64,000 nt of DNA from assembly GCF_044647545.1 (NCBI RefSeq), contig NZ_CP172818.1. One strand, written 5' to 3'. Numbering within the stretch: the first letter of the stretch is position 1; every line of letters starts with the position of its first letter. A program made the position numbers and the translations under genes. Below the pieces are notes generated by a model that was given only the letters and a program-made list of their open reading frames with translations, was not told where the DNA came from and ran no database searches. The stretch is from Escherichia coli. GTDB lineage: Bacteria; Pseudomonadota; Gammaproteobacteria; Enterobacterales; Enterobacteriaceae. This document shows positions 5,377 to 26,244 of this stretch, in pieces.

Positions 5377-5901
5377 ATGGCTTTGACAACCATTTCGCCG
5401 CATGATGCACAAGAATTAATCGCACGCGGCGCAAAGTTAATCGATATTCGTGACGCTGATGAATATCTTCGTGAACATATTCCTGAAGCAGATCTGGCTC
5501 CATTATCCGTGCTGGAACAGTCAGGTCTTCCGGCTAAATTATGTCGCGAGCAAATTATATTCCACTGCCAGGCAGGTAAACGCACCAGTAATAACGCCGA
5601 TAAATTAGCAGCGATTGCCGCCCCCGCAGAAATCTTTTTACTCGAAGATGGGATTGATGGCTGGAAAAAAGCAGGATTACCAGTAACGGTAAATAAATCT
5701 CAACCCTTGCCGTTAATGCGCCAGGTGCAGATCGCTGCGGGTGGTTTAATATTAATCGGCGTTATACTGGGTTATACCGTAAATAGCGGTTTCTTCTTAT
5801 TAAGCGGCTTTGTTGGTGCCGGGTTACTGTTTGCAGGAATTAGCGGTTTTTGTGGGATGGCAAGGTTGTTAGATAAGATGCCGTGGAACCAACGAGCTTG
5901 A
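5377..5901 (+). CDS. ygaP: membrane-anchored rhodanese (thiosulfate sulfurtransferase)
   Basis: ORF track 5377..5901, 174 aa; rhodanese domain followed by hydrophobic C-terminal segments. Confidence 0.9.
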
Positions 5902-5906
5902 GAAGC

Positions 5907-5944
5907 GACGCCGGACGCGCCATAGCGGCGGCATCCGGCCTCAG
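5907..5944. repeat. REP-like GC-rich palindrome between convergent ygaP and stpA
   Basis: gacgccggacgcgccatagcggcggcatccggcctcag read from sequence. Confidence 0.4.
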
Positions 5945-5947
5945 TAA

Positions 5948-6352
5948 TTAGATCAGGAAATCGTCGAGAGATTTACCTTCTGCCAGCGCCTGAGCGATTG
6001 GCTTCGGTGTACGGCCCTGACCGGTCCAGGTTTTAGTTTCACCGTTAACATCGGTGAATTTATATTTCGCCGGACGCGGCTGGCGTTTTTTACCAGCGCG
6101 TGGGGCGGCCGCGGAGCTATTACCCAATAACTCTTCCGGGTTAATTCCGTCAGCTTTCATCAGCTCCAGCCAGGTGCTAATTTTTTCCTGGCGCTCTGCC
6201 AGTTCACGCTGCTGCTGTTCTTCTTCTTCACGTCTTTCTTTAGTGACAACCCTGAATTTTTCGAGCATTTCTTCAAGAACGTCAATGGAGAATTCGCGAG
6301 CCATCGCACGGAGGGTGCGAATGTTATTTAAACTTTGTAACATTACGGACAT
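5948..6352 (-). CDS. stpA: H-NS paralogue, nucleoid-associated DNA-binding protein StpA
   Basis: ORF track 5948..6352, 134 aa; recognised StpA sequence ([33 protein letters not shown]...). Confidence 0.96.
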
Positions 6353-7019
6353 AATAAAGAAAACCTTTTAACGCCAAAACAAAAAAGTATTTCGTCGCGT
6401 AGTGTAAGCGATCACTTATTATATTTCCACAAAATTTAATCTATTTACAGTCCTGCGCGAGATTATTTCAGCTGTTATTTTCTGAAACTCTCAGAATAAT
6501 TTCAAGATTATATATTAGCCATTTTGATGAGTAATTTCGGTTATTTGTGAGCAGAGCGGCGCTCTCTGCTCGCTAATTCCGCAAGCCTGACAAAACAAAA
6601 ATGAATAAAAATGCAATTTAACCGAATAAATGGAAACACCCCTCACTGGTGCTTTCTGCTGTCAATGTACATTTTCTGGCATAAAAAATGCTGAAAATGA
6701 CCCGGTCACGACATACACCGAATTCTCTACGCTTATAGCGTTACCTCACCCCCAAACCTTCATGAGTGATAATAAAGGTAAACACATATCCAATTGATTT
6801 AATTAAAAATAAATTATATCGGCATGTAAAAATCCACAATGTACAAAAAACGCGCCGTTACGGAATATTTTATCTACAAAAACAGATTAAATAAAAATTT
6901 TTCACTAATTGATTAGTCATAGCCAGCGATATACGCTATGCGAAAATGCAGATGGCAATGAGATCCACTGCTTTCACCTCCATTAACATCCCATTACGCT
7001 TTTATTAAGGAGCATTAGC

Positions 7020-7469
7020 ATGTTCTCACCGCAGTCACGCTTGCGTCATGCAGTTGCAGATACGTTCGCGATGGTTGTTTACTGTTCTGTCGTGAACATG
7101 TGTATTGAAGTTTTCCTCTCCGGAATGAGCTTCGAACAGTCTTTTTATTCCAGATTGGTAGCGATTCCGGTGAACATCTTAATTGCATGGCCATACGGTA
7201 TGTACCGCGATCTGTTTATGCGCGCAGCACGCAAAGTTAGCCCGTCGGGCTGGATAAAAAATCTGGCGGATATCATGGCTTATGTGACGTTCCAGTCACC
7301 GGTGTATGTGGCGATCTTGTTAGTGGTGGGCGCAGACTGGCATCAGATTATGGCGGCAGTCAGTTCAAACATCGTTGTTTCGATGTTGATGGGGGCGGTT
7401 TATGGCTACTTCCTCGATTATTGCCGCCGACTGTTTAAAGTCAGCCGTTACCAGCAGGTAAAAGCCTGA
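7020..7469 (+). CDS. alaE: L-alanine exporter
   Basis: ORF track 7020..7469, 149 aa; recognised AlaE (YgaW) membrane protein. Confidence 0.93.
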
Positions 7470-7480
7470 CCCTTCTTTTC

Positions 7481-7503
7481 GCGACTGGCATCGCCAGTCG
7501 CGT
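7481..7503 (+). terminator. putative rho-independent terminator after alaE
   Basis: Hairpin gcgactggc-atc-gccagtcgc followed by GTCTTTAA, read from sequence. Confidence 0.5.
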
Positions 7504-7505
7504 CT

Positions 7506-7850
7506 TTAACTGGCTTCGCCAAATAAACCATTCAAATAACGTTCAAGCGCAACACGCGAACTAAAGCCATGTGGGATACCGTAATGCTCATGACGTTCAC
7601 CCGCTAAATAGAGCGGAAATTGCTGGTAATGATCGCAAGTTTTAATATCGGAAGCGGGTTCAGCCAGTGTTGAACTACGTTCTTTTAATGTTGGATGAAT
7701 CACCAGGGCGGTACGTCCCATTCGCGCTTCGCGATTAACATAGACATAATTTTCCCCACGGCGGTAACCATACGCTTTCTGGGTTACCACATCGACAGTA
7801 AAACCGACTTTTTCAAGTACGCGCGCCACCTCGTCTGGTCGTAAATACAT
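7506..7850 (-). CDS. ygaC: DUF2002-family protein YgaC
   Basis: ORF track 7506..7850, 114 aa; conserved position between alaE and ygaM. Confidence 0.88.
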
Positions 7851-15994: not shown

Positions 15995-16076
15995 TCGGGC
16001 GGATAAGGCGTTTTTGCCTCATCCGCCGCTCTGTACACAATGCCTGATGCGACGCTGGTGCGTCTTATCATACCTA
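15995..16076. repeat. REP elements (two units) downstream of proX
   Basis: ttcgggcggataaggcg...catccgccg and gcctgatgcgacgctggtgcgtcttatca palindromes. Confidence 0.6.
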
Positions 16077-22671: not shown

Positions 22672-22744
22672 GAAAGACGCGCATTTGTTATCATCATCCC
22701 TGAATTCAGAGATGAAATTTTGGCCACTCACGAGTGGCCTTTTT
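22672..22744 (+). ncRNA. micA: MicA (SraD) Hfq-dependent small RNA
   Basis: gaaagacgcgcatttgttatcatcatccctgaattcagagatgaaattttggccactcacgagtggcctttt matches my recollection of the MicA sequence, with its own terminator hairpin ggccactc-acg-agtggcc + TTTT. Confidence 0.93.
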
Positions 22745-25652: not shown

Positions 25653-25729
25653 TGGTGCATCCGGGAGGATTCGAACCTCCGACCGCTCGGTTCGTAGCCG
25701 AGTACTCTATCCAGCTGAGCTACGGATGC
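25653..25729 (-). tRNA. argQ: tRNA-Arg (anticodon ACG)
   Basis: Reverse complement is GCATCCGTAGCTCAGCTGGATAGAGTACTCGGCTACGAACCGAGCGGTCGGAGGTTCGAATCCTCCCGGATGCACCA (77 nt, CCA encoded). Confidence 0.95.
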
Positions 25730-25792
25730 ATCGGGAAAATTTATTTTATTGCTGATATTGATACCGCTACTAAAGCCATATCAAGTAAGAGA

Positions 25793-25869
25793 TGGTGCAT
25801 CCGGGAGGATTCGAACCTCCGACCGCTCGGTTCGTAGCCGAGTACTCTATCCAGCTGAGCTACGGATGC
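25793..25869 (-). tRNA. argZ: tRNA-Arg (anticodon ACG)
   Basis: Identical 77-nt tRNA-Arg copy. Confidence 0.95.
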
Positions 25870-25931
25870 ATCGGGAAATTTATTTTACTGCTGATATTGA
25901 TACCGCCACTAAAGCTATATCAAGTAAGAGA

Positions 25932-26008
25932 TGGTGCATCCGGGAGGATTCGAACCTCCGACCGCTCGGTTCGTAGCCGAGTACTCTATCCAGCTGAGCT
26001 ACGGATGC
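25932..26008 (-). tRNA. argY: tRNA-Arg (anticodon ACG)
   Basis: Identical 77-nt tRNA-Arg copy. Confidence 0.95.
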
Positions 26009-26071
26009 ATCGGGAAACTTACTTTACTGCAGATTTTTTGATACCGCCACTAAAGCCGTATCAAGTAAGAA

Positions 26072-26148
26072 TGGTGCATCCGGGAGGATTCGAACCTCCG
26101 ACCGCTCGGTTCGTAGCCGAGTACTCTATCCAGCTGAGCTACGGATGC
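26072..26148 (-). tRNA. argV: tRNA-Arg (anticodon ACG)
   Basis: Identical 77-nt tRNA-Arg copy. Confidence 0.95.
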
Positions 26149-26151
26149 AAA

Positions 26152-26244
26152 TGGCGGTGAGGCGGGGATTCGAACCCCGGATGCAGCTTTTGACCGCATA
26201 CTCCCTTAGCAGGGGAGCGCCTTCAGCCTCTCGGCCACCTCACC
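26152..26244 (-). tRNA. serV: tRNA-Ser (anticodon GCU), long variable arm
   Basis: Reverse complement is GGTGAGGTGGCCGAGAGGCTGAAGGCGCTCCCCTGCTAAGGGAGTATGCGGTCAAAAGCTGCATCCGGGGTTCGAATCCCCGCCTCACCGCCA (93 nt). Confidence 0.95.

Follow-up and report, generated by a model that had tools for sequence, protein, structure and literature searches.

The stpA-alaE Intergenic Region of Escherichia coli Is Probably a Known, Shared Divergent Control Region With a Chance Hairpin in Its Center

Gene Layout and Composition of the stpA-alaE Locus

In the window, which is the 64,000-nucleotide stretch of E. coli DNA analyzed in this study, a spacer of 667 bp (positions 6353–7019) separates stpA from alaE. The coding sequence of stpA, which encodes an H-NS paralogue, occupies 5948–6352 on the minus strand and was identified from its open reading frame and from the RefSeq annotation of an identical sequence. 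[quoted passage not shown] The RefSeq and MG1655 annotations agree that the ORFs flanking the spacer are stpA and alaE. The spacer was single-copy in 5419 of the 5426 complete E. coli genomes and was 100% identical to that of strain FDAARGOS_497. The K-12 stpA-alaE (stpA-ygaW) region is the same locus, with the same flanking genes, core promoters and TSS contexts; its overall identity to the spacer was 95% and the 98 bp proximal to stpA were identical.

The GC content of the spacer was 0.351, compared with 0.528 for the whole window. Only 0.09% of the 667-bp tiles of the window reached a GC content this low, and the tile with the lowest GC content began at 6321, nearly coinciding with the spacer. 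Runs of at least five A/T occurred at 15 per kb in the spacer vs. 3.3 per kb, a 4.5-fold enrichment. The strong AT-richness and the poly-A/T tracts noticed in the sequence-only reading of this DNA are therefore real. The same holds for its description of the spacer as the longest non-coding stretch of the window: the longest stretch without any open frame of at least 60 codons in the window itself was 6372–6986 (615 bp), while the runner-up was 216 bp. In the RefSeq annotation of the near-identical strain FDAARGOS_497, the second-largest intergenic gap was 355 bp. The spacer had also been called ORF-free, which is correct for long ORFs but not for short ones, as mechanical ORFs of 20–55 aa are present within it.

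Conservation Across the Enterobacteriaceae

A search with AlaE yielded 80 loci of Enterobacteriaceae, in 57 of which stpA was located divergently upstream of alaE. The spacers ranged from 475 to 789 bp in length and from 0.31 to 0.43 in GC content. Since the divergent pair and such spacers were found in 57 of 80 loci, the long AT-rich spacer is an ancestral, maintained feature.

For a conservation profile, 60 enterobacterial spacers were aligned and their identity to the window was calculated per 10-bp block. Both ends of the spacer were conserved in this alignment, at 6353–6432 on the stpA side and at 6783–7019 on the alaE side. Between the promoters lies a fast-evolving AT-rich center (6440–6780), which varies in length across genera. 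Its block identities to the 59 other sequences ranged from 0.09 to 0.41, with a single island of 0.53 and with many gaps. Within E. coli, the center was 93–96% identical and the stpA-proximal 98 bp were 100% identical. As judged from these alignments, the promoter-proximal parts appear to be under purifying selection.

Two of the loci were unusual. In E. coli P276M (NZ_CP044293.1), both stpA and alaE are annotated as frameshifted pseudogenes, and the spacer was only 67–76% identical outside the stpA-proximal 98 bp; this oddity may reflect a sequencing-quality problem or a divergent lineage. In Citrobacter amalonaticus, the alaE 5′ UTR contains an insertion of ~130 nt, which is GC-rich and partly palindromic. 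It follows the conserved leader, precedes the Shine-Dalgarno sequence and brings the spacer to 778 bp.

Transcription Start Sites and Core Promoters

SMRT-Cappable-seq of MG1655 identified an stpA transcript from 2798537 to 2798047 on the reverse strand and an alaE transcript from 2799086 to 2799651 on the forward strand (PMC6131387, supplement). Via their exact flanking sequences, these K-12 start sites were transferred to positions 6393 (minus strand) and 6942 (plus strand) of the window, respectively. That the spacer holds divergent stpA and alaE promoters, as had been surmised from its position, is thus confirmed. The two TSS positions are 549 apart, leaving 548 bp of DNA between them. From the same data (PMC6131387), the stpA 5′ UTR is a U-rich leader of 41 nt (6353–6393, minus strand). 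The alaE 5′ UTR is 78 nt long (6942–7019, plus strand) and includes the Shine-Dalgarno sequence AAGGAG at 7007–7012.

Based on TSS distance and conservation, a putative core promoter could be assigned to each gene. The putative stpA promoter (6401–6429, minus strand) would consist of a −35 hexamer TGGAAA (6429–6424), a 17-nt spacer and a −10 hexamer TACACT (6406–6401) that ends 8 nt before the mapped start. The putative alaE promoter (6909–6937, plus strand) would consist of a −35 hexamer TTGATT (6909–6914), a 17-nt spacer and a −10 hexamer TACGCT (6932–6937) that ends 5 nt before the mapped start. In the 60-sequence alignment, cTGGAAA and TAnnnT on the stpA side and a TTG-containing −35 and TAnnCT on the alaE side were kept across genera. 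The generic promoter/terminator scan returned weak consensus matches only, none of which was located at either mapped promoter. It missed the stpA and alaE promoters because their hexamers are weak, and such weak hexamers would fit activator-dependent promoters. Two divergent mapped TSSs, properly spaced conserved hexamers and AT-rich tracts, to which H-NS/StpA bind, are hallmarks of a divergent sigma-70 promoter region controlled by nucleoid-associated proteins, and all three were found in the spacer.

The gene-centered TSS table from SMRT-Cappable-seq of MG1655 contained nothing between 2798537 and 2799086. Similarly, Term-seq of MG1655, which covered three conditions (LB at two densities and minimal medium; PMC7815308), showed no 3′ end at any coordinate from 2798496 to 2799163. 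The only 2798xxx 3′ ends were 2798048, 2798243, and 2798385, each of which belongs to stpA or its terminator; no 2799xxx 3′ ends were found, and the Rho-termination region closest to the spacer, at 2799705, lies beyond the downstream end of alaE (PMC7815308). Thus, the spacer gives rise to no transcript besides the stpA and alaE leaders as far as these K-12 data go, which represent a few laboratory conditions and from which transcripts made only upon H-NS depletion or in the host would escape.

Two further observations concern the 3′ ends of stpA. A GC-rich palindromic element was found at 5905–5945, between the convergent ygaP and stpA, and the K-12 Term-seq 3′ end at 2798048 marks it as the stpA terminator. 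The 3′ ends at 2798243 and 2798385 fall within the stpA coding sequence.

Regulation by Lrp and H-NS and Candidate Binding Sites

The binding and the effects of Lrp and H-NS at the spacer are taken here from the literature on K-12 (PMC10127797; PMC3946193; PMC4668568). ChIP-seq, the resolution of which is low, revealed double peaks of Lrp at the stpA-alaE region with leucine-modulated occupancy, and this was complemented by qRT-PCR and AFM (Ziegler and Freddolino, PMC10127797). Under Lrp, alaE flips in a leucine-dependent manner between slight repression and strong activation; removal of the second Lrp peak, which lies inside ygaP, resulted in a more than 5-fold loss of the Lrp-dependent activation of stpA; and Lrp bridged the stpA-alaE fragment in AFM, with leucine abolishing the bridging (PMC10127797). 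The spacer has also been catalogued as bound by RpoD holoenzyme and flagged as an H-NS site (Shimada et al., PMC3946193), and stpA has been summarized as Lrp-dependent and H-NS-silenced (PMC4668568). Moreover, addition of valine raised alaE expression more than 300-fold (PMC7066862). The expectation that AT-rich tracts beside the gene for an H-NS paralogue would be targets of nucleoid proteins is hence well founded, given the Lrp peaks and bridging (PMC10127797), the H-NS flag (PMC3946193) and the silencing of stpA (PMC4668568).

In the window alone, sites matching the Lrp consensus at 11 or more of 15 positions were not enriched (15 vs. 16.1 in composition-matched shuffles). Among the 60 spacers, matches to YAGHAWATTWTDCTR at 13 or more of 15 positions numbered 37 vs. 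20.4 ± 4.8 in shuffles, and these matches clustered at about −96, −159, and −375 from the alaE ATG. Because there is no enrichment in the window alone, the assignment of Lrp sites rests on cross-genus position and low-resolution ChIP. The −96 cluster corresponds in the window to the Lrp-like palindrome CAGCGATATACGCTA (6924–6938, plus strand), which matches the consensus at 12 of 15 positions and overlaps the putative alaE core promoter. The −159 cluster corresponds to CGGAATATTTTATCT (6861–6875, plus strand; 11 of 15), centered ~74 bp upstream of the alaE TSS. The block of CGGAATATTTTATCT was 0.81 identical across genera, and six spacers had sites matching at least 13 of 15 positions at −158/−159. 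The distal cluster at about −375 maps by cross-genus alignment to 6645–6661 (plus strand). At this position, sites matching at least 13 of 15 were present in 12 spacers, which came from Salmonella, Klebsiella, Raoultella, Yokenella, Citrobacter, Enterobacter, and Lelliottia; the homologous position in the window is degenerate (9 of 15 by hand count). These three positions in the window are candidate Lrp contacts as judged by consensus and location. The positions at −159 and −96 are 63 bp apart, which is about six helical turns.

Additional conserved elements were found in the spacer. A conserved island, GCATAAAAAATGCTG (6679–6693, minus strand), matches the Lrp consensus at 11 of 15 positions and was almost invariant in seven Escherichia sequences. 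Two highly conserved blocks, 6861–6883 and 6890–6902, precede the alaE promoter. The conserved A/T block ATTAAATAAAAATTTTT (6886–6902, plus strand), directly upstream of the alaE −35 hexamer, was 0.88 identical across genera and may be an UP-like or NAP-binding element.

Long AT-rich upstream regions controlled by Lrp or H-NS are also present at ilvIH, pap, and fim. Similar to the upstream regions of dadAX and oppA (PMC10127797), the stpA-alaE spacer has multiple AT-rich Lrp-like sites of degenerate sequence, scattered across hundreds of bp, and it likewise shows double ChIP peaks, an occupancy that responds to leucine, and bridging over long distances. Different from dadAX, oppA, ilvIH, pap, and fim, however, a single spacer here controls two divergent genes with opposite responses, and the individual Lrp sites described here are predicted ones.

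The GC-Rich Inverted Repeat

The inverted repeat at 6543–6577 has imperfect arms of 14 nt and an 8-bp core stem, in which the arms GAGCAGAG (6549–6556) and CTCTGCTC (6564–6571) enclose a 7-nt loop, CGGCGCT (6557–6563). The sequence-only reading had correctly pointed to this GC-rich repeat but placed it at about 6550–6572, one base off the real core of 6549–6571. Perfect 8-bp hairpins with loops of 3–10 nt occurred 31 times in the window, and one arose in 14.7% of the dinucleotide shuffles of the spacer; an equally GC-rich stem arose in only 0.4% of these shuffles. The hairpin is of locally unusual composition and unremarkable at genome scale.

The hairpin block was the least conserved of the spacer, with an identity of 0.14 and ~60% gaps across genera, and its place is taken by unrelated sequence in E. 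albertii, E. whittamii, and the cryptic clades. Among 5418 E. coli genomes, the exact 55-mer around the hairpin of the window was found in 236 (~4%), while the majority differed from it at 2–5 positions. This place was single-copy in each of the 5418 genomes, by which a REP/BIME or ERIC-type repeat was ruled out. The window strain has a minority allele of the center, in which one G/A polymorphism, relative to K-12, makes the repeat perfect: K-12 and most sampled alleles have A for G at stem position 3, which creates an A-C mismatch, and the O157 allele additionally loses the innermost stem pair. Loop variants were abundant among the sampled E. coli alleles, and none of the stem changes had a compensating one in the opposite arm. 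All E. coli alleles sampled retain the repeat at least in a weaker form.

Only the allele of the window folded better than its shuffles (−19.8 kcal/mol; z −3.0). The z values were −1.3 for K-12, −0.8 for O157, and −0.9 or weaker for other Escherichia species. In an alignment of 15 sequences, three pairs with two-sided changes were observed vs. 2.0 expected, and 134 of 500 shuffles also reached three. Alignment cells that looked compensatory were rejected, as they came from one divergent lineage that folds no better than shuffles, and they inflate cell-based scores. Thus, neither the covariation nor the conservation of the hairpin exceeds chance. There was no T-run after the stem on either strand, and the hairpin lies outside both the stpA and the alaE leader.

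The hairpin might be the operator of an E. coli-specific dimeric DNA-binding protein that tunes stpA or alaE. Its dyad symmetry, with 8-bp arms around a 7-bp center and the extension to imperfect 14-nt arms, would suit such a protein, as would the locally outstanding GC-rich composition and the persistence of the repeat in some form in all sampled E. coli alleles. However, two stem positions are polymorphic within E. coli while the partner arm is unchanged, and the repeat is missing from sister species in which both genes and their promoters are retained. It is also 156 bp from the stpA TSS and ~370–390 bp from the alaE TSS, does not recur in the genome as regulon sites would, being single-copy, and by reading shows no match to the CRP consensus. 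Because its arms are polymorphic, an E. coli-specific operator is unlikely, and on all of this evidence we regard it as quite unlikely.

Similar to a Rho-independent terminator or the 3′ hairpin of an sRNA, the repeat has a GC-rich 8-bp stem and a 7-nt loop. Different from them, however, it lacks a U-tract, a mapped 3′ end and an upstream TSS, and it is not conserved. As the hairpin has no T-run, is single-copy, is not conserved and shows no significant covariation, it behaves neither as a terminator or sRNA nor as a conserved RNA structure or repeated palindrome. The proposal that it is a structured RNA element or a protein-binding site is thus not borne out, since the perfect repeat is specific to an allele and its stem is broken in K-12 and O157. 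Most likely, it is a lineage- and allele-specific inverted repeat that arose as a neutral by-product and functions neither as an RNA nor as a protein-binding site. Even a GC-rich hairpin that stands out from AT-rich surroundings can be a strain-specific accident.

Small ORFs, the alaE Leader and Candidate Small RNAs

The nine mechanical ORFs of the spacer were traced through 15 Escherichia sequences, and all nine were truncated, without a start codon or freely diverging in some lineages. The 55-aa ORF at 6630–6797, for instance, has no start codon in K-12. The ORFs that overlap the alaE promoter seem conserved only because the underlying DNA is. Similarly, no RNA or small-protein gene is annotated in the gap in MG1655 or RefSeq, and the MG1655 annotation already covers many validated small proteins.

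Two of the ORFs, a 27-aa ORF (6611–6694, plus strand) and a 20-codon uORF (6946–7008, plus strand), could be taken for small-protein genes. The ATG of the former at 6611 does not vary within Escherichia, and a frame of 22–27 codons is open in most lineages. However, this frame retains only 7 codons in O157 and 2 codons in Escherichia sp. MOD1, its peptide is not conserved between species, and it lies 248–331 nt upstream of the sole mapped plus-strand TSS. The uORF begins 4 nt after the alaE TSS, i.e., at +5 of the mRNA, and its stop codon overlaps the Shine-Dalgarno sequence of alaE. Only E. coli and E. albertii have it intact; in the cryptic Escherichia clades just 5 codons are left, and other genera lack it. 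Neither ORF is preceded by a Shine-Dalgarno sequence, and MG1655 annotates neither of them. A small protein encoded by the spacer is thus very unlikely. The length of the alaE UTR was kept at 74–86 nt, and RNAalifold predicted no consensus pairs in 21 alaE leaders from different genera and species.

Searches for known RNAs gave the same picture. With Rfam, matches in 5800–7600 at an E-value cut-off of 10 were at chance level only and far below the gathering scores, and scans at gathering level of the whole window and of 15 related loci from other species detected nothing in the spacer. No relevant sRNA named after stpA, alaE or ygaW was found in the literature. The conjecture that the hairpin is part of an unannotated sRNA or a cis-acting structured RNA transcribed inside the spacer, which could draw on the folding energy of the window allele, on a weak promoter-like match on the minus strand at 6505–6477 and on the 548 bp between the mapped TSSs, is extremely unlikely and, for K-12, largely refuted by the missing T/U run on either strand, the lack of any 3′ end in the spacer in the three Term-seq conditions and of any TSS beyond the two gene TSSs in the gene-centered table, the lack of an Rfam match and of an annotated MG1655 ncRNA, the broken stem in K-12, O157 and most E. 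coli, the unrelated sequence in other Escherichia species and the insignificant covariation. With no Rfam match, no K-12 3′ end and no conserved ORF in the spacer, the room that its length seemed to leave for an unannotated sRNA or small protein does not appear to be used, and neither of the two is supported.

A Shared Divergent Control Region

Taken together, 6353–7019 is best explained, with a probability of about 85%, as the known control region shared by the divergent stpA and alaE genes, with a chance hairpin in its drifting center. Two sigma-70-type promoters and their short leaders of 41 nt (stpA) and 78 nt (alaE) would share the spacer, and the AT-rich DNA between them would be a binding platform for nucleoid-associated regulators, such as Lrp and H-NS/StpA. 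Octamers or hexadecamers of Lrp bind the spacer and bridge it to the second site in ygaP. Lrp activates stpA and sets alaE between mild repression and strong activation according to amino-acid status, and H-NS silences stpA. The central ~340 bp would be fast-evolving, indel-prone DNA that retains a few short islands resembling protein sites.

As the region was already known, the contribution of this study is a modest one, namely anatomy: start sites placed in this strain, conserved weak hexamers and three Lrp-like sites at conserved positions. The analysis removes a candidate sRNA or small-protein locus and has little importance beyond such housekeeping. For groups working on Lrp bridging at this locus, such an anatomy could help to choose targets for footprinting or mutagenesis. 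An unlikely but more far-reaching version is that the center is more than filler: the distal site at about −375, which keeps its position in 12 spacers from seven genera and shares a spacing frame with the two proximal sites, could belong with them to a higher-order Lrp wrap, conserved across genera and coupling stpA to alaE. E. coli-specific changes, such as the GC-rich repeat or the near-leaderless uORF, could then retune this coupling or give rise to a transcript that appears only once H-NS no longer silences the region.

Other Features of the Window

Apart from the spacer, which is identical in the two strains, two indels distinguish the window from FDAARGOS_497. The window is without a 1.87-kb segment that follows ygaM in FDAARGOS_497 (at ~8387), which consists of an aminotransferase-family gene and a carboxymuconolactone-decarboxylase-family gene, and without a 568-bp segment that follows ascB (at ~50026). 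The Rfam scan of the window also identified the sRNA MicA at 22672–22743 (plus strand; 83.9 bits), naRNA4/CssrE at 15997–16074 (plus strand; 60 bits, barely over the gathering score) and five tRNAs at 25656–26244; the RefSeq record of the near-identical strain has an ncRNA annotation for none of these.
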